DNA of 57,973 nucleotides from a virus (taxonomy: Duplodnaviria; Caudoviricetes). This document shows positions 3,334 through 57,973 of the stretch, one piece after another. Numbering within the stretch: the stretch's first letter is position 1; every line of letters starts with the position of its first letter. The stretch covers positions 1-57,973 of the IMG/VR virus record IMGVR_UViG_3300032086_002841; one strand, 5' to 3'. The translations under genes and the position numbers were made by a program. The notes below the pieces were generated by a model, which did no database searches, was not told the origin of the DNA, and saw only the letters and a program-made list of their open reading frames with translations.

Positions 3334-3657
3334 TTAATCTCTCAATCTGATAGTCACTAACCATATAACTATAGATACGACTATCGCTATACCTACAATA
3401 TCTTGTGCGCTACCTGTAAGCGTAAACCATGCGATGAAAAAACCAAGCAAAGTAAACACCTGCGCAATAGACTCCTTTATTGCATCGATAGACCATTTAC
3501 TTAATACTTTTAAAATAGAAGGAATCTTTTTAATAAACCTAATAAATTGTCTATAAGACCATTTGAGGGATATTAAAGAACCCTTTACTGCTTTTAGCAT
3601 AAAGTAATATGGCATACCCAATACATCGTAAAAAAACTTAAAAACTTTTTTGATCAT
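3334..3657 (-). CDS. Membrane protein
   Basis: Basic amphipathic N-terminus and two C-terminal TM segments. Confidence 0.65.
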   Translation of the reverse strand: MIKKVFKFFYDVLGMPYYFMLKAVKGSLISLKWSYRQFIRFIKKIPSILKVLSKWSIDAIKESIAQVFTLLGFFIAWFTLTGSAQDIVGIAIVVSIVIWLVTIRLRD

Positions 3658-6443
3658 TAAAATCTCCTAATCAAAGCACCTGCTTGCGCAATTATCTGCG
3701 AAGCAATAATGACAGGAACGACCACTTCTTGTGCTTTCTCTTTTTGGTCGCTAGTCATATCAGCGCCCAACTCCCCCAGATCCATCTCTCTTATGTCTAT
3801 ATTAACAGACACAAGTTCACCTAATGGATTTTCCAAGAACGCCTCTACTTGGACTTCTGTAACAACATCAGCTAATGTATAGTTTTCAACATCTTTGTTT
3901 GCTATAGCTCTATCAACATATTCGTTAACTGCTTCTTGTATATTTACTTCTTTTGCAGCTGATTCAGCAATTTTTTCTACATCCTCAGCAGCAGTTTCCT
4001 GATCTGTAAATCCAAGAACTTTACCAACTTCTTTCTTTTCCTCAGTAGACAACTGAGCTACAGTTTCAACTTTGGTAACTTCCTGGACAACAGCTTTAAC
4101 AACAGCTTTAGTTTCTTTGCTTGCGTTACCTAAGTTCTGAACATTTGCTTTAGCTACCTCTTTGACAACCTCTACTTTTTTCTCAGTAGGTAGTTCTTTA
4201 ACGACTTCAGCAACTTTGGCTTCATAAACTTCTTGAGCTTTTTCTTCGGCTGCAACAACTTCTTCTTCAGATAAACCTTCAGTTTCAACAGGTTCTTCTT
4301 CTACTATTTCAATAACAACTATTTCTTTAACTGCATTTTCTGTTTCTTCGACAATAACAGCTACTTCTTCGTCTGTGAGTTGTACCTCTGGATCTCCCTC
4401 CTCACTAGGTAGTGAGTCAATCTCCACTTCGTCAAGTTCGGTTTCTTCATCAGCAAAATCTTCTTTAATTGGGATCGTTGTTGTAGTAGTAGTCGTGGTA
4501 CTAGGAGTAACAATAACAATTTCTTCCAACTCAAATACTTCTTCTTCATATTCAATAACCTCTAATGTGTCTTTTAATTCTATTATAGTATTTACTAAGT
4601 CGTCTAATGATTTTTGTTCCTCATCAGTTAAATCTTCTCCATCATCAGTTGTGTTGAAATCTGTAAGTGAATCTTGAATTTCTTTCTGAATACGAGCTTG
4701 TTCTTCTTCAAGTTCTTTCTGAATACGAGCTTCTTCTGCTAAACGAAGTCTTTCCTCCTCTTCTAAACGAAGACGCTCTTCTTCTTCAGCTTTTTCTTGA
4801 GCAATACGCTCTTCCTCGGCTATGCGCTCTTCTTCAGCAATACGGGCTAACTCAGCTTCATAAGCCTCTTGAGCTTTACGATCTTCTTCTTCTTGAGCCA
4901 AACGCTCTTGTTCAGCTTCATAAGCTAATTGAGCTTCGTATTCTTTTTGCTTTCTATCTGCTTCGGCTTGTGCGTCAGCGTCATCTTGTGCTTTTTGATT
5001 AAATACTGTTAGTGTCGGTTCAGTACTGTAGCCACTATAAACATTGTTAGTAGAAGAAAAGGCTCGAATGCTAAAAGTATATTCTCCATTAGGAATGCTT
5101 GCATAAGGTATAGTGTACTCTGTTTCTGAAATGTTATAGACAACTGTTTCGTTCTCAGCACTTGTTCTAAAGTAAAGCTCATAAGTATCAGCAGTTTGAT
5201 TACCTGTATTAGGTGCGTCCCAATCTACAACTACACCAACATTATAAGTTTGTGATACTACAGGATTCATAGGTGGTCCAAGAGTTGCTACCCATTGTGT
5301 TGTTTGAAAATTATTACTATCACTATCAGTACAAGATTCTCCATTATCTAAATCTCCACACACACTAAACACCCAATAAAATGTACCTGTTTGTATATTC
5401 GATTTATCTAGATCGTATTCTCTTAATGCTGTATCAGTAATAATTACTCTTGTCCAAGTTAAATTGTCATAACTGTAATTTATATGAAAAGAGTGTGCGT
5501 CTACACTACCATCTGTGTATTCCCAGCTAAACATTACATCTTCGCCACTATAGTTTACTGATACACTTGTAGCGTCATCTGGTGTAGGTGGAGGTGGGAC
5601 TGTATAGCTAGCTACATTAGACCAATTAGAATATCTAGCACTTGTATCGTTATCAGACCTTATCTTTACATAAAGAGTACTACCTACTCCCCAATCAGTA
5701 AAAACTGCTGATAAATAAGTTTGTGTAAAGGTATATGATGTATTTAAAGCGTTACTATCGCCAACATTACCTGTTGCAACTGCATAGTTAGTACCCACAA
5801 AGTTGTCATCACTAAAAGCTATCGCATATCTCTCTGGATCATATTCATAGTTTATATTTGGTGCAGTCCAACTTATGGCTACATCTCCAGAAGAATTTGT
5901 AGCTGTTGTATTAGTCGGATCACCTATGCCATCAAGTATCTTAGGATCATCACAAGCGTCTGTTCCTGTAGGTGCAGACCAATCTGTTTGATTAAATTCA
6001 AAAGGAGGACCTGCATAAAGATTCCAAGACTTTTCAGTAGAAAGTTCAGAAAAACTGTAATCAGTTATGTTATTTGCTCTAACTCTATAATAAATATTAT
6101 TTCCAGCAGGATCATTAAAGTAATACTTTAAATTATCAAGACTAAATGCGTAATACTGCCAAGTATTATCTTGATGTCCAAAAGAGGTAGTAACACAAAA
6201 GCTATTTGTTTCTGTTATACCACTACTTGTACTAAAAAAGATTGTATAGCTTTCTGGTGGACTAGCTTCTGCACCATCAGAACCTAGTATACCAATAGTA
6301 AATGTACCTGCGTTAACATCATTACTAGCATTAGTATCATAAGGTGTTTGTGTATCGACATGATAAGCCATAGCAATAGGAAATGGATATACAAGCAGAA
6401 AGACTATTAATATACGAGCTAAGGTATTGAATTTACGAAGCAT
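3657..6443 (-). CDS. Large exported protein: signal peptide, fibronectin-III-like repeats, TolA-like coiled coil, acidic linker, C-terminal hydrophobic anchor
   Basis: N-terminal hydrophobic leader; ISWTAP/VDWDAP and Y.FSIRA FN3 motifs; EEERIA repeats; VVVPVIIASQII C-terminus. Confidence 0.7.
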   Translation of the reverse strand: MLRKFNTLARILIVFLLVYPFPIAMAYHVDTQTPYDTNASNDVNAGTFTIGILGSDGAEASPPESYTIFFSTSSGITETNSFCVTTSFGHQDNTWQYYAFSLDNLKYYFNDPAGNNIYYRVRANNITDYSFSELSTEKSWNLYAGPPFEFNQTDWSAPTGTDACDDPKILDGIGDPTNTTATNSSGDVAISWTAPNINYEYDPERYAIAFSDDNFVGTNYAVATGNVGDSNALNTSYTFTQTYLSAVFTDWGVGSTLYVKIRSDNDTSARYSNWSNVASYTVPPPPTPDDATSVSVNYSGEDVMFSWEYTDGSVDAHSFHINYSYDNLTWTRVIITDTALREYDLDKSNIQTGTFYWVFSVCGDLDNGESCTDSDSNNFQTTQWVATLGPPMNPVVSQTYNVGVVVDWDAPNTGNQTADTYELYFRTSAENETVVYNISETEYTIPYASIPNGEYTFSIRAFSSTNNVYSGYSTEPTLTVFNQKAQDDADAQAEADRKQKEYEAQLAYEAEQERLAQEEEDRKAQEAYEAELARIAEEERIAEEERIAQEKAEEEERLRLEEEERLRLAEEARIQKELEEEQARIQKEIQDSLTDFNTTDDGEDLTDEEQKSLDDLVNTIIELKDTLEVIEYEEEVFELEEIVIVTPSTTTTTTTTIPIKEDFADEETELDEVEIDSLPSEEGDPEVQLTDEEVAVIVEETENAVKEIVVIEIVEEEPVETEGLSEEEVVAAEEKAQEVYEAKVAEVVKELPTEKKVEVVKEVAKANVQNLGNASKETKAVVKAVVQEVTKVETVAQLSTEEKKEVGKVLGFTDQETAAEDVEKIAESAAKEVNIQEAVNEYVDRAIANKDVENYTLADVVTEVQVEAFLENPLGELVSVNIDIREMDLGELGADMTSDQKEKAQEVVVPVIIASQIIAQAGALIRRF

Positions 6444-17212: not shown

Positions 17213-18547
17213 TTAAGCCCCCGGATCCGTGTCTGTTGCTGCGATATTGTATACTGTCACAACAGATCCTGCTGTAGCAGTTCCAGATCCACCTGTTCCT
17301 GCCGCTGCTGCCAATGTTAAACCACTTGGCAATGGTTTTGTTCCTGTAATTAAAATTAATGCGCCACCACCAGCATTAAAAGCTGTTGATGCAGTTCCTT
17401 TAGTTCCCCCTGCACCACCTGGGTGATAGTTTGTTGGGTTAGCAGCATAGTTAGTTGCGTTAGTATTTCCACCATAAGAATATCCATAAGAATATCCATA
17501 AGAATAGTTATTACCTGGATATGAATAATTATTACCAGGATGTGTATTTGTATTACCTGGATATGAATATTGATTACCAGGATGTGTGTGTGCATAATGG
17601 TAATGGTAAAAACCACCAGCAAAGTTGTTTATCGGTGGTCCTGGATGCCAATGGTAATGTGTATGAGATGAAGATGGATTAGATCCATAATTTGTTGGAT
17701 TTGATCCATAGTTAGTAGGATTAGATCCATAATTTGTTGGATTTGATCCATAGTTTGCACCTGAGTTTGATCCATAATTAGTAGGGTTTGTATTACCAGG
17801 ATAAGAATAATTATTTCCAGGTGTTTGTGCGTCTGGCGCTGGTGCGCCATCTGTTCCATCAGAACTAGCTGTTGAATCATCTGCGTCAGCTCTAATTGTT
17901 CCGTCACCTGAAATTGTTTTTGCTACAACTAAGACCACTCCACCACCTACTGCGCCTGTGCCTGCTGTCGCAGCATTACCATCTGCGCCTCGACCACCTC
18001 CTGCACCAACTGTTTGATAATTAGCCCAGTTAGTGTCAGATCCATCAGTTCCTGAGGTTGCATTTGCTGTAATTGTTCCTTCAGTTCCACCAGATCCACC
18101 ACTTAAAAATTTAAAAGAGCTTGTAGCTTGATCAAACTTTTGTCCTGCTAAAGCAACTGATAGATTAAAGAAATCAGATTCACCATCAAAAAAAGTATTA
18201 CCTGCGTGTTCTTCATCTGTTTGTTCTGAAGATCTACCACCTAGAGTGTCTGTAGCGTCTATACCTTTACCAAATCCACCTTTTAATGTTCCAGTATTTG
18301 TTTTGTTTGAATATCTACCAATTTTAGAAGTTGAGTCTGTAAATGTTAAAGTTCCTCTAACAAATACACGATAACCATTAGTATCTAATGTAACACCAGA
18401 GTTTATTGTAAGGTCGTTGTAATACATATCTCTAGCAAGAGTTGTATTAGATGCTAATGTGACATCACCATCTTGACCAAACCCATATATTTCATCACCA
18501 CCTAGTCTGTCCAAAAAAATTGGCTCAGGTATTTGTATTTCAGGCAT
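17213..18547 (-). CDS. Gly-rich virion/fibre protein with an Asn/Tyr/Pro/His repeat insertion
   Basis: IYGFGQDGDV, LARDMYYNDLTI and GYRVFVR; start at MPEIQ by TAATG coupling. Confidence 0.75.
   Translation of the reverse strand: MPEIQIPEPIFLDRLGGDEIYGFGQDGDVTLASNTTLARDMYYNDLTINSGVTLDTNGYRVFVRGTLTFTDSTSKIGRYSNKTNTGTLKGGFGKGIDATDTLGGRSSEQTDEEHAGNTFFDGESDFFNLSVALAGQKFDQATSSFKFLSGGSGGTEGTITANATSGTDGSDTNWANYQTVGAGGGRGADGNAATAGTGAVGGGVVLVVAKTISGDGTIRADADDSTASSDGTDGAPAPDAQTPGNNYSYPGNTNPTNYGSNSGANYGSNPTNYGSNPTNYGSNPTNYGSNPSSSHTHYHWHPGPPINNFAGGFYHYHYAHTHPGNQYSYPGNTNTHPGNNYSYPGNNYSYGYSYGYSYGGNTNATNYAANPTNYHPGGAGGTKGTASTAFNAGGGALILITGTKPLPSGLTLAAAAGTGGSGTATAGSVVTVYNIAATDTDPGA
17418..17821 (-). repeat. 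Coding tandem repeats: NYGSN(PT) x5 and PGN(N/Q)YSY x4 around a His-alternating segment
   Basis: 21-bp degenerate DNA repeats with synonymous variation. Confidence 0.85.
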
Positions 18548-18876
18548 TAGCTTACCTCTACACCAGAAACATGTATATTGACTGAAGTTGCTGCTGAACA
18601 TTTTGCAGCGACTGAAGCAGATGCCGGTATAACCATAGCCAAGTCAATGACTGAGGTTGTATTAGCCGAAACAGTAATATCGCCAAATACGATATGTTGA
18701 TCTCCTGTTGTGTCCCCTGAAGGAATAACTTTGATTTCTACTGTTCTGTCAGTTGCTGTATAGTTCGACAACATTATTTGCTTTATGATACATTTATTAG
18801 AATTGCTGAAAACTTGTGTTTCAGATGTTCCTAATGCTGTGACCTCTGCTAACTCTGCTGCATTATATACTGCCAT
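18547..18876 (-). CDS. Small virion structural protein (beta-rich)
   Basis: Paralog-like to 20404-20733; lies among fibre genes. Confidence 0.6.
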   Translation of the reverse strand: MAVYNAAELAEVTALGTSETQVFSNSNKCIIKQIMLSNYTATDRTVEIKVIPSGDTTGDQHIVFGDITVSANTTSVIDLAMVIPASASVAAKCSAATSVNIHVSGVEVS

Positions 18877-20734: not shown

Positions 20735-23700
20735 TTAATCTCCTAATATAAAGTAGTTTGCTAGACCTGAACTACCACCACCAACTTCGATCCAGCTACT
20801 ACCATCATATACATTTACTTTCGAGGTAGTGGTATTAAATATTTGTTCCCCACCTGTCATACCTGTAAGAGCATCTCTTTGAGTTGTTGTGAGGTTAGGT
20901 AATTTGACAGGTACAGAGAAATCAGCAGCAGTAGCATCTATTTTTAATCTTTCGCTACCTGCTGTGTGCATTTCTATTTCATCATTATCAGAATTAGAAC
21001 TTTCTACTCTAACAAATGTATCTGTATCGCCATCTCTAAATGTTGTCGCAGAGTTTGAAGTTCCTGTAATGTTAATTGGATCAACAGTTCCATCTGCAAG
21101 TGTTAGATCAAGGTCTGTTGCTGATGTTCCAACATTTGTAAACTGTATAGGATCAGAACTACCATCAGCTAAAGTAAGTGGCATTTCATCATTTACACTA
21201 AATGTTGCACTAGCAGCAAAGTTTGATTTCTGTACTTTTTTCAAAGCACCTGCACTACCATCGTAAACTACTATTAAGTCTGTTTCAGCAGGAGATGTAT
21301 CTTCTGTTAAAGTTGTAATTGCACCTGTGGTAATACCTGTAGCATTACCCTCAAATGTTCCTGCAACAAAAGTTTCAGATCCAACTGTCCACTTGTCTAT
21401 TGATTCGTCCCAAATTAAAGTTTTGTTAGCATCGTCACCTCTCTCAATTTCAATACCACCATTTTCTGAAGCAGAACCGGTTGCATTAGAATTGAGAACA
21501 ATTTGATTATCAGCTAAGTTTATTGTTTCTGTATTGACAGTAGTGGTAGTCCCTGAAACAGTTAAGTTTCCACTTACAGTCAAGTCATTAAAAGTCACAT
21601 CAGAAGTTGTAGCTACTGCCTGGCCGATACTTATAGCACCTGAAGATATTGATACTCCTGTACCACCTGTTACATAACTATCTATCTTTGTTTGGACTCT
21701 TGAATCTGTATAGTAGAGATTTGTTGTTCCTTCACTAAGGTCATCTGTATCTTTTGCAGCAAGTCTTGTATCAAAAGCTGTATTGACTCTAGCATCTGTG
21801 TAGTAAAGATTTGTAGATCCCTCTCCTATATCATCTGTATCAGCAGTAAAGTTAACGAATGCAGAGCCGTTGTATTTTATTAATTGACCATTAGATGGAG
21901 AAGTTATAGTTGTGTCTGTTAAACCACTTAATGTAGCTGTGACATCTCCAGGTTCAAACCTTGAGTTAGATGAACTATAAACTAGTGCTTGTCCATCTGA
22001 AACAGAAGTAGTAATTACATCGCTTAAATCTGCAATAGATACTGTACCAAAGTCAATATCTATTTCATCATTAGCTGTGTCGTTTGTAACAGTAATCTTT
22101 GCTGATCCTGCATTGATGCCTCTAAATTCAAGATCTTCTCCTGTTTTTTGTTTGAATACTCCGATACCAGCAACATTGGCGTTAGAAGCTGTGTTTACTT
22201 CACCAGATCCAGACAATCCTGCGAGTGATGAAAGAACAAAACCACCAGAAGTATCGCTATAAGATATAACTTTTGCGTCATCGCTTGATGTTGGATCGCT
22301 AAATAATACATCGTTTAAATCGTTTATATCGGCAGCAGCAATTCTTGCGTCTGCTCTAGCGTTAGTAAAGTAAAGGTTAGTTCCACCTTCAGCAAGACTA
22401 TCTGTAAAGCTAGGTATATCAGCTGTATATGCAACTGTTCCAGACTCGTTCTTAAATGTGACAGTTCTGTCAGCAGTTGGATTAGCAACTGTTAATTTTG
22501 TTTCAAAACCATTTAAAGAACTACCTTCAAATTTAATAGTTCTACCTGCGTGTAAGTGCATACCATCATCAGTAAACTCTGCAACATTAGATGAACTTGT
22601 AGTTATTACTAAAGCACCTTTGCTACCAAGAGCATCTATTCGACCAGATATAGTTGCATACTTAAAGTCACCACCATTACCTGAACCAGTTGAATTACCA
22701 TAAAAGTTTATTGTTCCTAATGTGTCGCCTGCACCACCAATGTCTGTTCCACCAGCAGCAGGACTATCGCTATCTGTATAAAAATCTAAATGTGGTCCAA
22801 AGTAAGTATTGCTACCACTAGCATATAATCTTGTTCCTGAACCAAAAATAGGTGTATCTGTATTAACCCAAGCTGAACCATTGTAAGCAAGTATTTCGTT
22901 TGTAGCTAAAGAACTTATTGTTGTATCACTTAAACCTGTAAGACTTGAAGTGACATCACCAGGTTCAAATTCACTATTGGTTGCGTTCCATACTAGAGCT
23001 TGACCACTTGTAGGTGCAGATGTTGTTATATCTACATCTGATAAATCACCGACACTTGCAGCTGATATTCTTGCATCAGCTCTTGTATTTGTGAAATATA
23101 AGTTTGTACTACCTTCTGTTAGGTTATCTGTATCTTTTGTTCCAAGTTGTGTATCAAATCTAGCATTTGTGTAATAAAGATTTGTAGAACCTTCGCTAAT
23201 ATCATCTGTATCGTGATTAGAAACATCGCTTACTGTTCCTGTGACATTACCTGTTAAGTTTCCTGTAAATGTAGAGTAGATACTTCCTGCGTCAAATCTT
23301 TCTGAGCCAACAGTCCATTTATTATCTGTTTCTTCCCAAATTAAAGTTACATTAGTATCACTACCACGCTCTATTTCTATTCCTGCATTTTCTGAGGCAC
23401 TACCTGTAGCGTTGCTGTTTAGAAGTATTATATTATCAGCAAGATTGATTGTTTCAGTATTTACTGTTGTAGTAGTACCACTAACAGTCAAATCTCCAGA
23501 TACAGTTAAATCATTGAAGGTAACATCAGAAGTAGTTCCTACTGCCTGTCCAATAGCAACTTCTCCAGAAGATATTGTTACACCAGTCCCTGCTGTTATA
23601 TGTGCTTGTACTTCTGAAGCACTTGGACCTGTATATGTAATTACTCCTGTGCTTGAGTTATAGGATAGTGATCCGTCACCACCACTATCTGTGACTGATA

Positions 23701-26700
23701 CTGAAGATCTAGCTCTTGCGTCTGTGTAGTATAAGTTAGAAGAACCTTCAGTTAAATCGTCTGTGTCACTCGCAGATAGTGATGTTCCTTGTACAGAAAC
23801 TACTGCATCTCCACCCATTCCTGAGTGTGCAGAACAATAATAATAAAGTGTGTCAGGCGTAGCTGCATTGACAATTATTTGAGTATAAGCGCCTGAAGAA
23901 CCTGGAGATCCGTTTGTTGTGACATTGGTTGTGTAAGAAGATCCTGAATTATGAGTACCATCTTTAGTTGTAGATAGTACTAATGGATGTCCTCCGTTAG
24001 AACCATCACTTTGATCAAATCTGTATGTTATTCCAGGTATTAATTGAATACTTGCAGCAGTTTCTCCATCTAAGTGATATTTATTACCACTTACATTCGC
24101 TACTGTAACTGCAAATTCAATGATTGGAGTGTTATCTTCAAAATTTATTGTTTTATTGGTTATTGTGTCTGTGCTAGTCGGAGTAAAATCTGCTGTCAAA
24201 GATCCTGAAGAATAAGTTAGTCCAGATCCAATTTCATTTTCACCAATTAACTCAACCCAATTACCTGCATGTGCATAGTAGGCTCTGCCTGTTGCGTGAA
24301 CATGAGCAAACATACCATGATAAGTTGATGCACTTGGTAAGTCACCTACATTTGAATATATGTTTGCAAATAGGACTTTTTGTCCATTCATATCTAGATC
24401 AGAAGTATTATCGAAAGCTATTGTGCCTGAGCTAAAGCTGATGTTTGTACCACCACTAAAACTTGATAGTGTAGTAAATGCTGATGTAGAATTATCGTAA
24501 TTAGCTAAATCATTATCTACTACAAAGTCAAAATTATTATTTGTGTCATCATAAGTTACAGTTATAAGAGTTTGTGTACCCATTGTTAGTGCAGTACCTA
24601 AAGCATCCTGCGCTCTTTCATTTGTAAAGTAAAGATTTGTAGAACCCTCAGACAAATCATCTGTATCATTATTTGATAGATTATCTTCAGTTGCTGCAAT
24701 AGTAAGTGTTCCTGCTGTGTCGTCATAAGTTAAAGTTATGTTTGATCCTGCTGTTAATAAAGCGTTTACTTGATCATCAACTCTTTCATTTGTGAAATAT
24801 AAATTAGTCGATCCTTCAGTTAAATCATCTGTTGTAGCAGCAGCAATCCTAGCGTCTGCTCTCGCATCTGTATAATATAAGTTTGTTCCTTCGGTTAAAT
24901 CACCAGTATCTTTTGTTCCTAATCTTGTATCAAATCTAGCGTCTGTATAATAAAGGTTTGTACCTTCTGATAGATCAGAGGTAGATTTACCTGTAAAAGC
25001 TGTGTCAAATCTTGCTGTAGTGTAATAAAGGTTAGTTCCTTCTGATAAATCTGAAGTACTGTGGTTAGCAATACTAGATACTGTACCTGTAACATCACCG
25101 GTTAAGTCACCTTCAATGTTTGCTAATAATGTACCTAATGCATAACCTGTTCCGGTTATGTCTACAGTTGTAGTAGGTTCACTTTGCAACCCATGAAACA
25201 ATCTAAACTTGTCAGATTGTGATGCGTCCCAAACTAAACCACCATATTTTGTTGTAGAAGATTGTACATACTTACCATAAAAACCAAAATCAGCAGAGTT
25301 TCCTGTGTTATTATCAGCATATCTAACTAGTGGATCATCAATAGTGACTGTAGTTGAATTAACTGTAGTAGTAGTTCCACTAACTGTTAAATCTCCTGTA
25401 ATAGTTGCATCACCATCAATGCTTATTGCACTAGAAGTTATGTCGTCAGATGTTAAAGTTCCGTCTACTTGAACATTATTAAATTGAACATTGTCAGTAG
25501 TTCCTACTGCTTGCCCAATACTAAATTCACCTGAAGAGTAAGAAATTCCTGTGCCTGCTGATAAATGTGCTTGAACTTCACTTGCGCTAGGTCCTGTATA
25601 AGTTATAACACCTGTTGATGAGTTATAAGCTAGTGATCCATCTCCACCTGAGTCTGTGACTGAAACAGATGCTCTTGCTCTACTATCTGTGTAATAAAGA
25701 TTACTTGAACCTTCTGTTAAATTGTCAGTTGTTTTTGTTGCTAATCTTGTATCAAACCTTGTATCGGTATAGTAAAGGTTCGTTCCTTCTGATAAATCAC
25801 TTGTACTAAATCCTGATAGAGATACAGTTGCGTCTATTGCACCATCATTTGCGTCATCGTATGTAAAAGATATTCCTGTATGACTACCATTAGTAACTAA
25901 TTGATCTCCAACAACATCTTGTACTCTTTCTGTTGTATGGTAAAGATTTGTACCTTCTGCTAAATCTGTAGTTGTATTATTTGATAAATCATCTTCAGTA
26001 GCAGCGATAGTAAGAGTTCCACTTGTGTCATCATAAGTCAAGGTTATGTTAGAACCTGCTGTTAATAAGTTTGCAACTCTATCATCAACTCTTTCGTCAG
26101 TAAAGTAAAGATTTGTTCCTTCGCTTAAATCACTTGTAGATTTACCTGAGAAAGCAGAATCAAACCTTGCAGTTGTATAGAAAAGATTAGAACCTTCTGT
26201 TATATCCCCTGTATCAAATTCTGAAAAATCTAGAGCTAATGTTAAAGTGTTAGCAGTATCATCATAGGTAGAGGAAAGACCTGTACCACCTACGACTAAT
26301 CCATTTACTATATCTTCAAGGGAATCTTCAACTTCAGTTAAATCAACAGATAAAGTTAATTGATTGTTTGTATCATCGTATGATATATCGATACCACTTG
26401 TTGTGGAATCAATAAGCAAAGCACCTACTCTGTCATCTACTCTTTCATTTGTGAAGTATAAGTTAGTGCTACCCTCTGATAAATTATCAGTATCTTTTGT
26501 AGCTAGTCGAGTATCAAAAGCACTATTAACCCTTGCATCTGTGTAATAAAGGTTAGTACTGCCTTCTGATAGGTCGTCTGTATCGAATGATGACATTGTG
26601 ACAGCTACAGTAGGTGTTTGTGCCTCACCTGAAGTAGCGCTTACAGATATACCTGTTCCTGCAACTAAATTTTGTACAAAGTCACCAACTGTATCAGTTG

Positions 26701-27676
26701 CTAAATCTATTGGATCATTTACCCAAGAAGATCCGTTATATCTTAAAACATCTCCATTAGCTAAACTTGTAAAACCTACATCACTTAGATCTGCGATACT
26801 TGCTGCTGTAATCCTGGCATCAGCTCTTGCATTTGTATAATATAAATTAGTAGAACCTTCTGTAATGCTGTCCGTATCAAACTCAGTAAAATCTACTGAA
26901 CCTGTAATAGTCCCAGATCCTTCTGTAAGTGTTATTCCTGTGCCACCTGTAAATGTGACTGTGCCACCTAATGCAACATCGGTTGAGTTAGATCCATCTG
27001 TGACTGTTATAGAACTATTACTAAATGCAGAGTTTGGAATATTAGTAAATGTGTTAGATGCACCACTAAGTGTTTTGTTTGTAAGTGTATCTGTAGAGGT
27101 TCTTGTTATTATTTCGTCATATGACTGATTCTCTCCTAAAACCCAACGATTTGTAGATACATCATAAAATATTCTTGCATCATCAGTATCTGAAGTTTCT
27201 ACAATAATACCTGCATCAACTTCGCTGTTACCTGTGTTAAGTTTTACGAAAGCATCATCAACTACAATGACTTCTGCTGTTGTATTTAAAAACTCTCCCT
27301 GAACATCAAGATTGCCTTGAATTGTAACTGATCCTGAGGTAGTCAAACCTGTAAATGTTGGGCTATCTCCTGTACCTAAACCTAAACTATCTCTTGCAGT
27401 TGATCCTGACTCAACAATCCATTGTGTACCATCTGATACAATAAACGAACCATCTGAATGTACTAGATTTCCTAATGTTGTTAAATCAACATCATATGCT
27501 TGTACATTAGAACCAATCTGTAAACCTAGACCAATTCTAAGATCTGCTAAAGAAGAGTAAGATCCACCTGTACCACCATCAGATAAACCTATAAAATCTG
27601 CTGATTGAAATTCAGCAAAACCATCAGGATTACCATCCCCATCATAATTCAGCCTTATTGGATCTTTTTCTGCCAT
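20735..27676 (-). CDS. Giant repeat-rich tail fibre (2313 aa)
   Basis: About 19 copies of TDDLSEGSTNLYYTDAR; repeated GDLTVSGTTTTVN modules; internal YYCSAHSGM domain. Confidence 0.85.
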   Translation of the reverse strand: MAEKDPIRLNYDGDGNPDGFAEFQSADFIGLSDGGTGGSYSSLADLRIGLGLQIGSNVQAYDVDLTTLGNLVHSDGSFIVSDGTQWIVESGSTARDSLGLGTGDSPTFTGLTTSGSVTIQGNLDVQGEFLNTTAEVIVVDDAFVKLNTGNSEVDAGIIVETSDTDDARIFYDVSTNRWVLGENQSYDEIITRTSTDTLTNKTLSGASNTFTNIPNSAFSNSSITVTDGSNSTDVALGGTVTFTGGTGITLTEGSGTITGSVDFTEFDTDSITEGSTNLYYTNARADARITAASIADLSDVGFTSLANGDVLRYNGSSWVNDPIDLATDTVGDFVQNLVAGTGISVSATSGEAQTPTVAVTMSSFDTDDLSEGSTNLYYTDARVNSAFDTRLATKDTDNLSEGSTNLYFTNERVDDRVGALLIDSTTSGIDISYDDTNNQLTLSVDLTEVEDSLEDIVNGLVVGGTGLSSTYDDTANTLTLALDFSEFDTGDITEGSNLFYTTARFDSAFSGKSTSDLSEGTNLYFTDERVDDRVANLLTAGSNITLTYDDTSGTLTIAATEDDLSNNTTTDLAEGTNLYHTTERVQDVVGDQLVTNGSHTGISFTYDDANDGAIDATVSLSGFSTSDLSEGTNLYYTDTRFDTRLATKTTDNLTEGSSNLYYTDSRARASVSVTDSGGDGSLAYNSSTGVITYTGPSASEVQAHLSAGTGISYSSGEFSIGQAVGTTDNVQFNNVQVDGTLTSDDITSSAISIDGDATITGDLTVSGTTTTVNSTTVTIDDPLVRYADNNTGNSADFGFYGKYVQSSTTKYGGLVWDASQSDKFRLFHGLQSEPTTTVDITGTGYALGTLLANIEGDLTGDVTGTVSSIANHSTSDLSEGTNLYYTTARFDTAFTGKSTSDLSEGTNLYYTDARFDTRLGTKDTGDLTEGTNLYYTDARADARIAAATTDDLTEGSTNLYFTNERVDDQVNALLTAGSNITLTYDDTAGTLTIAATEDNLSNNDTDDLSEGSTNLYFTNERAQDALGTALTMGTQTLITVTYDDTNNNFDFVVDNDLANYDNSTSAFTTLSSFSGGTNISFSSGTIAFDNTSDLDMNGQKVLFANIYSNVGDLPSASTYHGMFAHVHATGRAYYAHAGNWVELIGENEIGSGLTYSSGSLTADFTPTSTDTITNKTINFEDNTPIIEFAVTVANVSGNKYHLDGETAASIQLIPGITYRFDQSDGSNGGHPLVLSTTKDGTHNSGSSYTTNVTTNGSPGSSGAYTQIIVNAATPDTLYYYCSAHSGMGGDAVVSVQGTSLSASDTDDLTEGSSNLYYTDARARSSVSVTDSGGDGSLSYNSSTGVITYTGPSASEVQAHITAGTGVTISSGEVAIGQAVGTTSDVTFNDLTVSGDLTVSGTTTTVNTETINLADNIILLNSNATGSASENAGIEIERGSDTNVTLIWEETDNKWTVGSERFDAGSIYSTFTGNLTGNVTGTVSDVSNHDTDDISEGSTNLYYTNARFDTQLGTKDTDNLTEGSTNLYFTNTRADARISAASVGDLSDVDITTSAPTSGQALVWNATNSEFEPGDVTSSLTGLSDTTISSLATNEILAYNGSAWVNTDTPIFGSGTRLYASGSNTYFGPHLDFYTDSDSPAAGGTDIGGAGDTLGTINFYGNSTGSGNGGDFKYATISGRIDALGSKGALVITTSSSNVAEFTDDGMHLHAGRTIKFEGSSLNGFETKLTVANPTADRTVTFKNESGTVAYTADIPSFTDSLAEGGTNLYFTNARADARIAAADINDLNDVLFSDPTSSDDAKVISYSDTSGGFVLSSLAGLSGSGEVNTASNANVAGIGVFKQKTGEDLEFRGINAGSAKITVTNDTANDEIDIDFGTVSIADLSDVITTSVSDGQALVYSSSNSRFEPGDVTATLSGLTDTTITSPSNGQLIKYNGSAFVNFTADTDDIGEGSTNLYYTDARVNTAFDTRLAAKDTDDLSEGTTNLYYTDSRVQTKIDSYVTGGTGVSISSGAISIGQAVATTSDVTFNDLTVSGNLTVSGTTTTVNTETINLADNQIVLNSNATGSASENGGIEIERGDDANKTLIWDESIDKWTVGSETFVAGTFEGNATGITTGAITTLTEDTSPAETDLIVVYDGSAGALKKVQKSNFAASATFSVNDEMPLTLADGSSDPIQFTNVGTSATDLDLTLADGTVDPINITGTSNSATTFRDGDTDTFVRVESSNSDNDEIEMHTAGSERLKIDATAADFSVPVKLPNLTTTQRDALTGMTGGEQIFNTTTSKVNVYDGSSWIEVGGGSSGLANYFILGD

Positions 27677-51533: not shown

Positions 51534-52811
51534 TTAATATGCACTCCATCCTCTTGTGTACTGTGCGCTTAAAACTCCATAAGCTATGGCATCCACTATG
51601 TCGTCATGACTGCCCACAGGGAATGTCATCAATTCTCTTTCTACTTCTATCAAATAAGGTGCGCCATATTTGAAAAGAACATCTCCTGCTTCCATTCTCG
51701 CTGCTAAAGGCATAGCCCTGCTAACTTTATCTTTGTCAGCTCTTAATTCCTTTACAGCTAAACCTTCTCTTCTAGCAAACTGTATGAGCGAAAGCTGAAA
51801 GCCAGATCTTTCCATACCAACCCATTGTAAATCATATTCTGCCATTTTTTGTCTTATTCGAGGCACAATATCAGGTGCCTCCATGCGTTCACGAACAACA
51901 TCTAAAATCAAGATCTTGCCTTTTGGCGAAACGGCAAAACACGCAATAACAGTATAGTCGGCACCTTCTTCGATTGAGGTAGCAAGGTCTACTGTGGCAA
52001 ATTTTGTACAATCTCGTAAATCTATACTTTCTCCTCTTGCAAATATTACTCCGTCTTTTTCTTTGTAATATTTAAGCCAATCAGGTTTCAACAGTCCTTG
52101 ACCTGCTTCTACAAATTCTGCCATATATTCTTGAGCATAAACAATAGATCCAACTTCTGTTTTAGCTTGTTCTACTTCTTCACGATCAATCATAGGATTT
52201 GTATAAGTTGGAAATTGAAATCTGTCCCAATTTGGTTTATTTTCTGCAAATTCCCATAATTCATAAAACCAATTATTCATACCCATTGGCGTGCTAATAA
52301 ACAAAGCACCACCTTTTCTTTCAGTCAATGTAGGTCTTAATACTTGATGCCAAACATCAGGCTTTACGAATGCTGCCTCATCCATAACTAAGAAATCCAA
52401 ACCTTCACCCCTTAACCTATGAGGACTATCTGCTGATCTTACTGCTATAGATCCACCTGAATGTGGAAACTTAACTTCCATGTTTACTAATGATATTTCA
52501 GGTTCTATTTCAGAAGGAAATGATCTAGCTGATTCTTGTATATCTCTCCAACCAACACGAGCTATAGTGTAAGTAGGTGCAACCCACCAAGCCCTTTTCC
52601 CCTGCAAAGCTATTTCTAAACATAATTGCACACCAAGTCTTGATTTTCCAAATCGCCTACCTGCACATAGTATTTTCCAACGAGCATCACTATCTGCGAC
52701 TGCTTGTTGTGCATCATGTAAAGGTGGGAATATTGGATTTATTTCAACAGAATCATCAATTTGCGACTCATGACGATCCGTGTGATAAAAATCTTCATTT
52801 AATTCACCCAT
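51534..52811 (-). CDS. terL: Terminase large subunit
   Basis: AGRRFGKS (Walker A), LVMDEAAF (Walker B), ISTP, VDLA and HDDIVDA. Confidence 0.95.
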   Translation of the reverse strand: MGELNEDFYHTDRHESQIDDSVEINPIFPPLHDAQQAVADSDARWKILCAGRRFGKSRLGVQLCLEIALQGKRAWWVAPTYTIARVGWRDIQESARSFPSEIEPEISLVNMEVKFPHSGGSIAVRSADSPHRLRGEGLDFLVMDEAAFVKPDVWHQVLRPTLTERKGGALFISTPMGMNNWFYELWEFAENKPNWDRFQFPTYTNPMIDREEVEQAKTEVGSIVYAQEYMAEFVEAGQGLLKPDWLKYYKEKDGVIFARGESIDLRDCTKFATVDLATSIEEGADYTVIACFAVSPKGKILILDVVRERMEAPDIVPRIRQKMAEYDLQWVGMERSGFQLSLIQFARREGLAVKELRADKDKVSRAMPLAARMEAGDVLFKYGAPYLIEVERELMTFPVGSHDDIVDAIAYGVLSAQYTRGWSAY

Positions 52812-52830: not shown

Positions 52831-53925
52831 TTATTTGGTTATATTCTCCAATATAACAATATGAGCTGATTTCTCTAACAACTTCTTATTCTCTATAGCA
52901 TCTAGTTCTTCTTCTCTAGTGTATACAGTTTTGTTTTGAGTATTTATAATATTTCTGACTTCGTAGTCATATTCTTCATAAACAAGTTCAAAGATATTTT
53001 CTAAGAACATATCTTGTATAGGTGTTGTGATCAAGATAAGTTTAGATCCATTCTTTGTAGCAACTCCTAAATTACTAAGCTGATGTCTTATAACTTGACC
53101 GGCTACTTCTGAATCATCATATTCATCAAGAAAATCTAACATGTTAAGTATCACAACATCTGCATTGTTTACTTCTTCAGGATAGGCATCGAATATAACA
53201 TTCAAAACTTCCACACCCTCAAGATCTGGATATGGCATAGTCATAGGTGTAAATGTTTTAGACTCGTAACCAAATAAATCTCTGCAAAGATCTCTTGTTG
53301 TTCCATAGCTATCTGTTAAATCAACAATGAAGTTTCCAGGTTCTGCATACCAAAATAGTAAGTTTGCGATCATTTGAGGTGGAGTTTTTGTTTCTATATC
53401 TAAACCAAAAGCATTATTTGGTTTTCCAAAAGACCAAAAAGAAGTATATTTTATGTTTATACCTGCTTCTTCCATTCTCTCAAAGATGTCTTGTTCTCCG
53501 GAATCTAATTCCAACATCTTCATCTTTTTAATTTCTGATTTCAAATTCCTTACTGTGTAACCTCTAACAGCAGAATCATTTAAAAAAGCATCTTGTTTTT
53601 GAGGATCTAAAGGTGCAACTTCTTTATGATGTGACCAAGAAACACTAGGTAATCTTCTTGCAGGTTCTATTCTGCTTGCAACATATGCTGCATTACTAAA
53701 TGTCTGATAAGCAATACCAAGTTCTAGTGCTTGGGATGCCATCTCTCCATATTTGCGTTCTCCGTAGTTCCACCAATCTCCTAGCCACCACATAATATTT
53801 TGAGTTGTATCTACTAGTTTTTTACCAACTGCTACCCACTCTTCATATGATAAATTAGGATCAAGAAATAATTGAACCCTATCTGTTTGTATTTGAATTT
53901 CTTTGTTCTCTCTCATAACATTCAT
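52831..53925 (-). CDS. LmbU-like N-terminal domain fused to a degenerate DNA methyltransferase domain
   Basis: WWLGDWWNYGERKYG and SWSHHKEVA, then PPQMIANLLFWY..PG..IVDLTDSYGTT (altered DPxxGSGTT); no DPPY. Confidence 0.55.
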   Translation of the reverse strand: MNVMRENKEIQIQTDRVQLFLDPNLSYEEWVAVGKKLVDTTQNIMWWLGDWWNYGERKYGEMASQALELGIAYQTFSNAAYVASRIEPARRLPSVSWSHHKEVAPLDPQKQDAFLNDSAVRGYTVRNLKSEIKKMKMLELDSGEQDIFERMEEAGINIKYTSFWSFGKPNNAFGLDIETKTPPQMIANLLFWYAEPGNFIVDLTDSYGTTRDLCRDLFGYESKTFTPMTMPYPDLEGVEVLNVIFDAYPEEVNNADVVILNMLDFLDEYDDSEVAGQVIRHQLSNLGVATKNGSKLILITTPIQDMFLENIFELVYEEYDYEVRNIINTQNKTVYTREEELDAIENKKLLEKSAHIVILENITK

Positions 53926-55616: not shown

Positions 55617-55721
55617 ATGAGTTCTTATCTTAAAAAACTAAGTAAATGGGATAATGAAGTTCGTTCTACTTGGGATCAAGAGTGGGATTTCATCTCATAC
55701 AATGAGGATGACCTACCTTAA
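55617..55721 (+). CDS. 34-aa peptide ending NEDDLP
   Basis: MSSYLKKLSKWDNEVRSTWDQEWDFISYNEDDLP; convergent with the MTase. Confidence 0.4.
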   Translation: MSSYLKKLSKWDNEVRSTWDQEWDFISYNEDDLP

Positions 55722-57311
55722 AAGCTCATTATCAAAAACTACTGTATCTTCTTCTATTGCTCTTTTTAACAATCTACCTACAAGCTCTGCACATTCCGGT
55801 ACAACTGCATTTCCAAGAGCTTTTAATCTAGCTACACGATCTGGATATTCCTCAAGTGTTCTCGGCATCCCAAATTCCCATGCAGCAAAATCTTTAACTT
55901 GATCTCGCATGTTTCTAAATATTTCTAAAGGTAAAGTTTTTCTGTCACCTGTTTTAGATCCTGTTAGAACTGTGCCATATGTATCTTTGTGATCTCTAGC
56001 TGATGCAGTAGGGAACTTTAGATCATTGTGCCAATCTTCTTCTACTATTGTTGTCATCTCTTCATCAAACTGTAAAGGGATTAGGTAAGGCTTGATCATT
56101 TTCCAATGTTCTATTGTCGGATAACTAAATCCTGAATTGTCATATCGGAACCAATGATCTATTTTTGAACCTGGTATAGTGTCATTAAATCTATTCTTTA
56201 TATCTTTAGCTGATGTGACGGATCTTAAATAATCAACAAATTCTTTTTGAGGAGGTAAGTTTGGTCTGTTTACAATTTTTTCGTCATACTCTTCTAATAG
56301 ATCTGGATTGTCTTTTATTTGTTCCATAGCAACTTCTACTGCTAAAGATACTTGTACCGGCTGTCCTGAAGGTCTTGTGTTTTTACCTTGTATGATTTTG
56401 CTAGCAGTTTTAAGTGCATTTGACTTATCCATAGTTGTTGGAGTTCGCCAGGTGTTTGGATCTTTACTCCAAACATTTTGCATGCCTAATCTAGCCATCC
56501 ATCTGGGAAACCCATAAGACGAGTCACCCATCCATAATTCAGCCTCTTGCCTTGAAATCTCGGATTCTCCCTTAGATTCCCTGTCGATGATCTTTTGGAC
56601 TTCTTCTCCTTGTCCCCCCTGTACAGAACATTCTCCAATGCCTCCCCTGTTCTCGGTGGTAAGTGATCCATCGTGTTCGGAGTTTCCCAATTCGTTACTT
56701 GAACTTTGTCTGCTAGGTTCAATGACCTGTCCTCTCCTCCGTTCTTGGCTATCCTCCTCCCCTTCTCGTTCAGCTCTAAATCTCTGTGTTCGTTGTCCTG
56801 TGTCGAGGGTGTCGGCCAGGCTGCCAACTCCGAAGAATCTTTTTCTAAGGTGTGGCGCACCAACTGATCTTGCTGATACAATAGACCATTCGAAGTTATA
56901 TAACCTGCTTTCGGCAATATCTGTAATAACCCTTTCAAAGGCTTGCCCTTTGTTTGCTGTAAGTAGTCCTGGGACATTTTCCAAGATGAAGTATCGTGGT
57001 CGTAGTACATCAAGAAATCTCCAAACTTCGTCCCATAACCATCTTTCATCGTTTACTCCTTTTCTTTTTCCTGCTGTAGAAACCGGCTGACAAGGAAAAC
57101 CTGCTGTAATTATATCTACCTTAGGTAGTGATTCAGGATCTATTTCCTCGACTTTTTGCTCTAAAATTTGTGTGTTAGGATATCTTTTTCTTAAGACTTG
57201 GCAACAATATGGATCCATTTCTACCATCCAACTTGTTTGATCTACAAGTCCAGATCGTTCAAGGCCATATTCTAAACCACCTATACCTGAGAATAAACTT
57301 CCTACCTTCAC
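55713..57311 (-). CDS. DNA (cytosine-5)-methyltransferase, alpha polypeptide
   Basis: SLFSGIGG (I), GFPCQ (IV), ENVPG (VI), PHLRKRFF (VIII) and LKALGNAVVP (X); no motif IX in this frame. Confidence 0.92.
   Translation of the reverse strand: MKVGSLFSGIGGLEYGLERSGLVDQTSWMVEMDPYCCQVLRKRYPNTQILEQKVEEIDPESLPKVDIITAGFPCQPVSTAGKRKGVNDERWLWDEVWRFLDVLRPRYFILENVPGLLTANKGQAFERVITDIAESRLYNFEWSIVSARSVGAPHLRKRFFGVGSLADTLDTGQRTQRFRAEREGEEDSQERRRGQVIEPSRQSSSNELGNSEHDGSLTTENRGGIGECSVQGGQGEEVQKIIDRESKGESEISRQEAELWMGDSSYGFPRWMARLGMQNVWSKDPNTWRTPTTMDKSNALKTASKIIQGKNTRPSGQPVQVSLAVEVAMEQIKDNPDLLEEYDEKIVNRPNLPPQKEFVDYLRSVTSAKDIKNRFNDTIPGSKIDHWFRYDNSGFSYPTIEHWKMIKPYLIPLQFDEEMTTIVEEDWHNDLKFPTASARDHKDTYGTVLTGSKTGDRKTLPLEIFRNMRDQVKDFAAWEFGMPRTLEEYPDRVARLKALGNAVVPECAELVGRLLKRAIEEDTVVFDNELLR
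56486..57049 (-). CDS. Nested alternative-frame MTase beta polypeptide (start uncertain)
   Basis: The +1 frame carries WPTP/WETP repeats and the motif IX-like RLNYGWVTRLMGFPDGW. Confidence 0.75.
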   Translation of the reverse strand: MKDGYGTKFGDFLMYYDHDTSSWKMSQDYLQQTKGKPLKGLLQILPKAGYITSNGLLYQQDQLVRHTLEKDSSELAAWPTPSTQDNEHRDLELNEKGRRIAKNGGEDRSLNLADKVQVTNWETPNTMDHLPPRTGEALENVLYRGDKEKKSKRSSTGNLRENPRFQGKRLNYGWVTRLMGFPDGWLD

Positions 57312-57429
57312 GAAATTAGTATAACAATTACTTTGCTTATATACCAGGATATGATATATTTATATCACATATCGGAAATCGAAAAATATTGGCTATCGCC
57401 AATTCTTTTATTTCCTTCATGTCTGTACT

Positions 57430-57458
57430 AAACAAGCCCTCTTCGGAGGGTTTTGTTT
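57430..57458. terminator. Hairpin terminator (UUCG loop)
   Basis: AAACAAGCCCTC-ttcg-GAGGGTTTTGTTT, directly after the terS stop. Confidence 0.8.
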
Positions 57459-57973
57459 TATGAGCTGTACTTTATATTGAAGGTGATCGCTTTTTTCTTA
57501 GATCCTTCGATCTCTTCAGCAGATCGTTTTCCCCATTCTTTAGGGTTTGATCGTTCTAAGAACCATGCACTTGCTTGCCAAACACCATTGTTTGCTGCAT
57601 CTGTGATAACTGCAAGGTGAGAAATTTCTCCCTCGACTCTCGCCTTTTTTATAGACTCCCAAAACTCCCATAATTCCAAATCATCGGCATCTTTTATACG
57701 ATCTGGGTTGCCGTTACAAGCATCATCTATCTCAAAAGCGCGTTGTCGCCACCTATAAAAGGTAGTTTCGCTAATTCCTGCATAAACTGCTGCCTTTTTT
57801 TGAGATAAGCCAATCTTTAATGCTTGTGACAATTTCTTCCTGGTTGGATCATCAAGTTTAGAAGGTCTACCTCCCAAACTGTTTGCCTCTCCTACTACTA
57901 TACTTTCGTAGGTAGATTCATCATCCACATCGCTTTGTAGTTGATCTATTGGATCTTCTGATTCAGGCTTTGT
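57458..57973 (-). CDS. terS: Terminase small subunit / HTH DNA-packaging protein, 5'-truncated at the contig end
   Basis: GRPSKLD, AAVYAGISETTFYRW and WQASAWFLER..P.EWG; the frame is open to the end of the window. Confidence 0.75.
   Translation of the reverse strand, partial: TKPESEDPIDQLQSDVDDESTYESIVVGEANSLGGRPSKLDDPTRKKLSQALKIGLSQKKAAVYAGISETTFYRWRQRAFEIDDACNGNPDRIKDADDLELWEFWESIKKARVEGEISHLAVITDAANNGVWQASAWFLERSNPKEWGKRSAEEIEGSKKKAITFNIKYSS
57883..57973 (-). repeat. Terminal inverted repeat, right copy
   Basis: Reverse complement of 1-91. Confidence 0.95.

Follow-up and report, generated by a model that had tools for sequence, protein, structure and literature searches.

A phage cytosine-5 DNA methyltransferase gene with a second, selected reading frame nested inside it: a likely two-subunit enzyme

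If a phage gene encodes a cytosine-5 (C5) DNA methyltransferase that lacks one of the conserved motifs of the family, is the enzyme defective, or is the missing part supplied by another protein? This question is raised by the IMG/VR virus record IMGVR_UViG_3300032086_002841 (Duplodnaviria; Caudoviricetes), a complete record of 57,973 bp with inverted terminal repeats, which was analysed over its whole length and is referred to here as the window. On its minus strand, a methyltransferase gene (alpha) without a recognisable motif IX contains, in its +1 frame, a nested open reading frame (ORF; beta) that ends in a motif IX-like sequence. The evidence makes it likely that alpha and beta together form a phage C5 DNA methyltransferase of two subunits, on the plan of M.EcoHK31I. 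The features concerned, including short recognition-like modules that are named by single letters and a putative helix-turn-helix (HTH) domain, are the following.

55713..57311, minus strand: alpha gene, C5 DNA methyltransferase large subunit, 532 aa (ORF, PF00145, TIGR00675)
57276-57293, minus strand: motif I, FSGIGG, alpha residues 7-12
57087-57101, minus strand: motif IV, GFPCQ, with the PCQ cysteine, alpha residues 71-75
56967-56981, minus strand: motif VI, ENVPG (ENV), alpha residues 111-115
56832-56852, minus strand: motif VIII, HLRKRFF, alpha residues 154-160
56547..56822, minus strand: alpha linker, residues 164-255, charged and of low complexity (composition; poorly conserved in the alpha alignment)
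56331..56450, minus strand: alpha module T, WRTPTTMD..SLAVEV, residues 288-327, the start of a cassette of about 150 aa
56040..56264, minus strand: HTH-like domain, alpha residues 350-424 (fold matches, AlphaFold2)
56082-56246, minus strand: HWFRYD insert core, alpha residues 356-410
55917..56015, minus strand: alpha module A, FPTASARD..TLPLEIF, residues 433-465, just before motif X
55797..55886, minus strand: motif X, LKALGNAVVP (alpha residues 496-505), with the pre-X segment AAWEFGMPRT (invariant columns)
57056..57062, minus strand: Shine-Dalgarno sequence AAAGGAG for beta, 6 nt before its ATG, in the K-G-V codons of alpha that follow motif IV
56486..57049, minus strand: beta gene, 187-aa ORF, stop codon included in the span, nested in the alpha +1 frame (ORF, conservation, selection)
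56831..57049, minus strand: N-terminal region of beta (residues 1-73), sharing its DNA with alpha motifs V-VIII
56696..56818, minus strand: beta module Q, WPTPSTQD..ADKVQV, residues 78-118
56561..56689, minus strand: beta module M, WETPNTMD..NLRENP, residues 121-163
56489..56551, minus strand: beta motif IX-like tail, GKRLNYGWVTRLMGFPDGWLD, residues 167-187 (near-invariant in beta alignments)

Alpha is readily recognised as a C5 methyltransferase. It passes TIGR00675 (E = 1.1e-41; 143.6 bits, cut-off 100.65), M.HhaI chains align to its residues 5-162, and motifs I (FxGxG), IV, VI and VIII are all present in order. The PF00145 match (E = 2.3e-47) covers alpha residues 1-231 and positions 1-232 of the 324 in the profile, that is, motifs I-VIII only. 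The part of PF00145 that holds motif IX is unmatched anywhere in alpha, and the IX-like motif sits in the +1-frame ORF; alpha is therefore a family member as part of a split enzyme, not as a canonical single chain. Further downstream, the motif X core GNAVVP (alpha 500-505) is unchanged in all 19 aligned relatives, and the linker between these regions is rich in E, G, R, S and Q. An initial annotation of this DNA, made from the sequence alone, had described an alpha chain with motifs I-VIII and X whose frame becomes low in information after motif VIII, exactly where a nested +1 ORF encodes two module strings and a IX-like tail. The PF00145 match and the invariant GNAVVP bear out the first part of that description, the composition of residues 164-255 and the lack of selection on them in the alpha frame (see below) bear out the second, and the strings and the tail were all found in place.

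An open alternative frame is not by itself a gene, and the nested ORF was therefore compared with chance expectation and with related loci. The +1 frame is free of stop codons for 188 codons. In 5,000 shuffles of the synonymous codons of alpha, the longest +1 run averaged 55 codons and never exceeded 142; since 0 of 5,000 reached 188, chance is excluded as the reason for the open frame. Elsewhere in the window, the longest +1 run in the other 29 long genes (14,482 codons) is 97 codons. A search of viral (IMG/VR) contigs with alpha recovered 29 loci, with full-length matches of 49-70% identity, of which 26 span the overlap region and three (L010, L030 and L031) are cut by contig ends. The +1 ORF is open in all 26 spanning loci and ends in an MGFP or MGYP motif in each, and the position of the beta ATG is identical throughout. 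AAAGGAG lies 6-8 nt upstream of this ATG in 15 of the 20 loci listed, and near variants of it occur in the remaining five. Additionally, gene callers have reported beta in its own right on short contigs from metagenomes, with identities of up to 96%, and it weakly matches phrog_1008, annotated as 'DNA methyltransferase' (E = 1.5e-9). Its tail is a short LMGFPxGW motif, the counterpart of which precedes motif X in a single-chain relative, P0028. From these comparisons, beta is very likely to be a real gene.

Alpha starts with GTG, and no Shine-Dalgarno site is visible in the start context in the window. The difference between this start and the AAAGGAG and ATG of beta may set the ratio of alpha to beta. 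A consensus scan for an internal promoter that could serve beta gave 8 sites against 7.1 expected, none of them convincing. The GC content at 56500-56900 is 0.48-0.50, compared with about 0.25-0.39 in windows outside the overlap, and a rise of this kind would follow from a need to keep both frames free of stop codons. An antisense ORF of 167 aa (56587-57090, plus strand) was also considered as a third gene and rejected: its open run varies between 65 and 190 codons among 21 relatives, and it thus looks like a by-product of the stop-poor, GC-richer composition.

If both frames are used, then each should carry its own signature of selection. Diversity was measured as the mean pairwise difference at codon positions 1/2/3 among 25 distinct sequences. 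In the alpha frame, it is 0.186/0.086/0.434 before the overlap and 0.105/0.020/0.118 within the overlap under motifs V-VIII, and thus third-position diversity is about 3.7-fold lower inside the overlap (0.434 to 0.118). In sliding windows, the alpha third position steps from about 0.40-0.46 to 0.16-0.12 exactly at the beta ATG, so the constraint on the silent sites of alpha starts with beta. After motif VIII, the third position of the beta frame is the most variable, both overall (0.149/0.105/0.323) and within module M (0.144/0.072/0.366) and module Q (0.061/0.012/0.264, from the four sequences that carry Q). In this region only the beta frame is under selection; the alpha frame stays open, but the linker that it encodes is unselected read-through of the beta modules. 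Downstream of the beta stop codon, the ordinary alpha-frame pattern resumes, as the third-position values indicate: 0.379 in module T (0.188/0.074/0.379 for the three positions), 0.405 in the HTH insert and 0.414 in the C-terminus around motif X. By computation, then, the overlap is dual coding, with selection on both frames, each where it is meaningful.

Structure prediction suggests that the two products interact. The predicted complex of alpha and beta has an ipSAE interface score of 0.87 in all three runs, compared with 0.00 for the best of three controls; the runs share at least 69% of their contacts, and the predicted local distance difference test (pLDDT) value of the partner is at least 64. 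One set of predicted contacts joins beta 47-66 to alpha 136-149, around motifs VII-VIII. A second joins beta 168-186 to alpha 478-506, which includes the pre-X segment and motif X, and to alpha 10-15 at motif I; the beta tail is predicted to bind mainly to the pre-X segment and motif X. The head of module M (beta 119-126) also touches alpha and is the only beta module head with a confident contact. The initial annotation had regarded beta as a second subunit and had named structure prediction of the pair as a check. The predicted complex supports that assignment, as do the conservation of the ORF, ATG and Shine-Dalgarno sequence and the frame-specific selection. Solved single-chain C5 methylases exist, and part of the complex score may therefore stem from likeness to them; on the strength of the model, binding of alpha to beta is supported rather than shown.

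This arrangement has a known precedent. Nearly all characterised C5 methylases are monomeric, with M.AquI and M.EcoHK31I as the exceptions given in the available part of PMC3404938. For M.EcoHK31I (Escherichia coli, YGGCCR), the available part of PMC2836561 describes a beta chain encoded in another frame inside alpha that supplies motif IX, a need for both chains, and a weakened association when the N-terminus of beta is truncated. Likewise, beta lies wholly within alpha and in another frame in 26 of 26 loci here, and the role of the beta N-terminus in association, as far as that part of the source describes it, fits the predicted docking contact of beta 47-66. There are also differences. M.EcoHK31I is a cellular restriction-modification methylase, whereas the present gene is an orphan phage gene; beta here carries two recognition-like modules; the part of alpha that follows motif VIII is read through without being selected; and an additional module, an HTH-like domain and a last module before motif X have been added to alpha. 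The analogy with M.EcoHK31I, which had been drawn at the outset, thus holds in architecture.

Two phage loci help to place the nested form. Paenibacillus phage Leyra has a 345-aa alpha with motifs I-VIII and X that contains a 234-aa beta in its +1 frame, and GenBank annotates both coding sequences (CDS) as 'DNA-cytosine methyltransferase' (LEYRA_61/62). The Leyra beta has three W/x-T-P heads and an LMGFP tail and is matched by the window beta in tblastn; it differs in that all modules are in beta, and alpha is without a module or HTH-like cassette. In Mycobacterium phage Hoot (L033 1201-2200), gp84 encodes motifs I-VIII and then stops, and gp83, in the +1 frame with a 179-nt overlap, carries P-T-P heads, a IX-like motif and motif X. 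Judged by sequence, the Hoot pair appears to be an M.AquI-like split, intermediate between the single-chain and nested forms: in M.AquI, according to the available part of PMC3404938, alpha terminates beyond motif VIII, and motifs IX and X are both on the second chain. In the window, by contrast, alpha continues through the entire beta region and keeps motif X, which leaves beta fully nested, unlike in M.AquI and Hoot.

Together, these observations suggest how the enzyme might be made and assembled. Alpha and beta would probably be translated from one mRNA, with beta initiating internally at its own Shine-Dalgarno sequence and ATG. Alpha would consist of a catalytic core (motifs I-VIII), the read-through linker, a cassette of module T and the HTH-like domain, one further module and motif X. 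A strand at beta residues 47-66 is predicted to dock on alpha near motifs VII-VIII, and the IX-like tail of beta, a predicted helix, would pack against alpha motif X; strand and helix together would complete the alpha fold. The two beta modules and the two alpha modules would together form the DNA-recognition part. We infer that beta is translated separately, that both chains are required, that the modules take part in targeting and that the enzyme has a protective role.

Several points weigh against this two-subunit reading. Beta has no family in Pfam and NCBIfam searches, and a profile of 64 beta sequences finds no chain in the PDB even at E <= 10, so the 'motif IX' label of beta rests on its position and a short motif only. 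Folded alone, beta has a mean pLDDT of 60 and no VIA match at Z >= 2, a result that is uninformative on its fold. The complex was built from author-made alignments, and the calibration of the interface score, in which 116 of 157 solved complexes and 2 of 215 mismatched pairs reach the mark of 0.87, therefore holds only roughly. The likeness to M.EcoHK31I in having motifs I-VIII and X in alpha and a IX-like motif in beta is one of description, and the available part of PMC3404938 places the recognition domain of that enzyme in alpha and only motif IX in beta. Finally, translation of beta and activity of the pair are steps that we infer.

The modules are about 40-48 aa long. The initial annotation had counted four repeats, two in beta and two in alpha flanking an HTH-like insert. 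All four strings exist, with WRTPTTMD, HWFRYD and FPTASARD found in alpha as described; as repeats they do not hold up, since they share only a head motif of 8-10 residues, and a profile-profile comparison of beta with the C-terminal part of alpha aligns just 10 columns at 7.9% probability. With only the head alignable, they are best described as modules that have this head in common; that they repeat a single unit cannot be demonstrated. Their number and type vary among relatives in a manner that appears cassette-like. In the clade of the window, beta contains [Q,M] in the window and in L003-L006 and L009, [M,S] in most loci, [S] alone in L024 and [M,K,Q,S] in L029; the indels fall at the W heads, giving 1 to 4 modules per beta, and distant relatives have up to 6 head-pattern matches in beta. 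In all alphas of the clade, motif X is directly preceded by a single module, for which there are three alternative types (module A of the window is one of them), and the insert of about 150 aa with module T and HWFRYD is present in 11 of 19 aligned alphas and missing in 8.

In a sister clade (L034-L056), these elements are distributed differently between the chains. There, beta is 330-381 aa long and carries modules M and T and the HWFRYD domain, followed by Q and/or S and the IX motif, alpha is without any W-x-T-P head, and about 1.0-1.1 kb is read in two frames (L034:1767-2888). The alpha cassette of the window is 46% identical (E = 2e-43) to a beta-frame segment of L034. By sequence comparison, the cassette of about 150 aa, a module with a weakly Xre-like HTH domain, thus appears to belong to alpha in one lineage and to beta in another, which is sensible only if both chains join one enzyme.

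The assignment of the insert as HTH-like, also made initially, is upheld in part. In an AlphaFold2 model of the alpha C-terminal part, the fragment of module T and the insert (model residues 8-143) has pLDDT values of mostly 66-94 and the rest is poor in isolation; the HTH-like domain itself has 74-94. VIA-align with alpha 350-424 (about 63-137 in the model) gives Z scores of 3.3-4.8, mostly to HTH domains of the Xre/Cro/cI type among 50 rows, including restriction-modification controller proteins (C-protein domains). These matches are weak, a Foldseek search of the alpha C-terminal model against the PDB gave nothing at E <= 0.001, and Pfam gave no match to the insert at E <= 1. A 73-residue HWFRYD core is 47% identical (E = 2e-19) to a mid-protein insert of P0194, a PF01555 N6/N4 methylase of 442 aa from a metagenome, which has its HWFRYD-type domain at residues 226-295. 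The presence of this domain in C5 and PF01555 methylases suggests a small mobile domain common to unrelated phage methylase classes, and most likely it binds DNA.

The nested arrangement had initially been taken to be rare, and this proved not to be so: it is widespread in phages, and some GenBank records annotate two CDS. A tblastn comparison of beta with phage genomes gave matches to C5 methylase genes, read in their alternative frame, from three groups that are not related to one another, namely Microcystis phage Mwe-JY08, Acinetobacter phage ABMM1 and 48 Paenibacillus phage records. Among 1.84 billion searched, at least 2452 cluster representatives match the beta profile at E <= 1e-3, and 193 do so at the stricter E <= 1e-10. 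Of 40 representatives sampled, 37 are without a Pfam family, and one has a sub-threshold match resembling SHOCT, an unrelated small domain. The nearest ESM Atlas clusters are viral 'hypothetical proteins'. In a second set of 78 loci, gathered through a beta-frame protein and hence biased towards having beta, 64 include the alpha N-terminus and 63 of these 64 have a nested +1 ORF with a IX-like motif.

Two other members of the sample of 40, both metagenome proteins, combine both parts in one chain. In P0028 (1214 aa), a single-chain C5 methylase, motifs I-VIII are followed by 15 W/F-x-T/S-P heads; an LMGWP motif lies at residue 1119 and motif X at residue 1176, and on the basis of this sequence P0028 is a candidate hyper-multispecific enzyme. 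P0071 (376 aa) reads alpha 1-87 (motifs I-IV) and passes straight into the beta frame, where it has five heads and an LMGYP motif; it could reflect a genuine frameshifted gene, a mistake in assembly or an artefact of gene calling. A literature search, which did not extend to subscription journals and REBASE, found no paper describing a nested pair in phages, and the available parts of Paenibacillus phage genomics papers list methylase genes with no mention of nesting. The two-CDS GenBank annotations indicate that nested pairs have already been seen by annotators. The basic nested design is thus already known from M.EcoHK31I and the GenBank Paenibacillus phage pairs, and it is the variant described here that is new: the cassette-like variation of the modules, the coding of one cassette in alpha or beta by lineage, and the occurrence of its HTH-like domain in an N6/N4 methylase as well, as far as these can be read from sequence.

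What the modules do is a separate matter from whether the enzyme has two subunits. The nearest known parallel is provided by the multispecific C5 methyltransferases of Bacillus phages (SPR, phi3T and rho11s), single chains in which tandem domains give multispecificity. Like them, the present enzyme is phage-borne and has tandem, short, variable, cassette-like modules after motif VIII and before motif IX; in contrast to them, its modules are spread over two overlapping ORFs and not contained in one polypeptide. The possibility with the most in its favour, at not quite an even chance, is that all modules of a real two-subunit enzyme build one composite recognition domain with a single target. 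This would be compatible with the two-subunit reading and at odds only with multispecificity, which the initial annotation had raised as no more than a possibility, and cassette differences would then shift one specificity. It agrees with the restriction of module similarity to a head of about 10 residues and with the fact that most characterised C5 methylases, in the available part of PMC3404938, have one target. The confident contacts of a single beta module head (119-126) fit one engaged unit, or alternation. It accounts less well for the clean gain and loss of cassettes at the W heads, and the 15 heads of P0028 are hard to fit into one recognition domain.

It is also possible, if rather less than probable, that each module is an independent target-recognising domain and that several sequences are methylated, up to four in the case of the window. 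The different module combinations in beta, the three alternative types at the last alpha position, the 15 heads of P0028 and the module length all point in this direction. Neither the beta profile search of the PDB nor VIA, however, revealed sequence or fold similarity to characterised recognition domains, and the similarity between modules is confined to the head.

Ribosomal frameshifting could in principle fuse the two frames, for instance by a -1 slip from beta into alpha at G GGT TTC (56505-56513). The sequence GGGTTTCCC near the end of beta does fit the X XXY YYZ pattern when read in the beta frame, and G-F-P is read in both frames. However, GGGTTTY is kept in only 23 of 57 distinct related contexts, which makes such a slip unlikely; in addition, beta has its own conserved ATG and Shine-Dalgarno sequence, the constraint begins exactly at that ATG, and no shift site is apparent after motif VIII. 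Frameshifting is accordingly rated as very improbable. It is scarcely credible that compensating frameshifts, whether sequencing errors or the decay of a pseudogene, have disrupted a single-chain methylase here and left the +1 ORF as a remnant: single-chain relatives with the order VIII, modules, IX, X do exist (P0028) and P0071 fuses alpha 1-87 to the beta frame, yet all 26 independent contigs, whose alphas are 49-70% identical, share these frames, as do 63 of the 64 loci in the biased second set, alpha is open across the whole overlap, and purifying selection acts in both frames where each is meaningful, results which also contradict the compensating sequencing frameshifts that the initial annotation had named as grounds for abandoning its proposal.

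The genomic setting of the two-subunit gene pair is that of a tailed phage. The genes of the window lie on the minus strand; among them are those for both terminase subunits (small and large), the portal, a protease, the major head protein and the tape measure protein. The methylase gene is flanked by the small terminase gene terS (57458-57928) and by a run of small ORFs that precedes the large terminase gene terL (51534-52811). The 146-nt spacer between terS and the methylase start (57312-57457) contains one further pair of features.

57437-57450 and 57388-57403, minus strand: terminator-like hairpins

No restriction-enzyme-like neighbour was found among the neighbouring ORFs by Pfam or PHROGs. 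The enzyme most likely methylates the phage's own DNA late in infection, before packaging, and would thereby evade host restriction. Elsewhere in the window, a structural protein of 2313 aa (20735-27676, minus strand) is matched by phrog_697 in 10 separate stretches, which suggests a highly repetitive tail or fibre protein. Four further ORFs, all on the minus strand, match no PHROG family at E <= 1e-5: 52831-53925 (364 aa), 3657-6443 (928 aa), 17213-18601 (462 aa) and 197-1408 (403 aa). The first of these is the nearest large ORF to the methylase, and a Pfam search with it was also empty.

Long overlapping genes on the same strand with both products demonstrably selected are rare, and here the products would be subunits of one enzyme. 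Routine gene callers keep one of two such ORFs, and phage methylases of this kind are therefore annotated as complete with half of the enzyme missing; if alpha alone were expressed to find the methylation motif of the phage, probably nothing would be seen. The beta family is large and unnamed, with its 2452 representatives and 37 of 40 sampled members outside Pfam. A broader proposal, which must be regarded as tentative and on balance doubtful, is that the modules act as cassettes, each recognising a target independently, within a very large, unnamed two-chain phage C5 family, and that they can be placed in either chain by way of overlapping frames. If this were true, a common stock of cassettes would let phages put together combinatorial, multispecific anti-restriction methylases, as much as about 1.1 kb of DNA would be read in two frames, and beta, not alpha, would be the main specificity subunit of the EcoHK31I-type design. 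Should the modules be specificity cassettes, they would offer a natural toolkit for reading and redesigning methylation specificity, and a case study of the movement of domains between overlapping reading frames.

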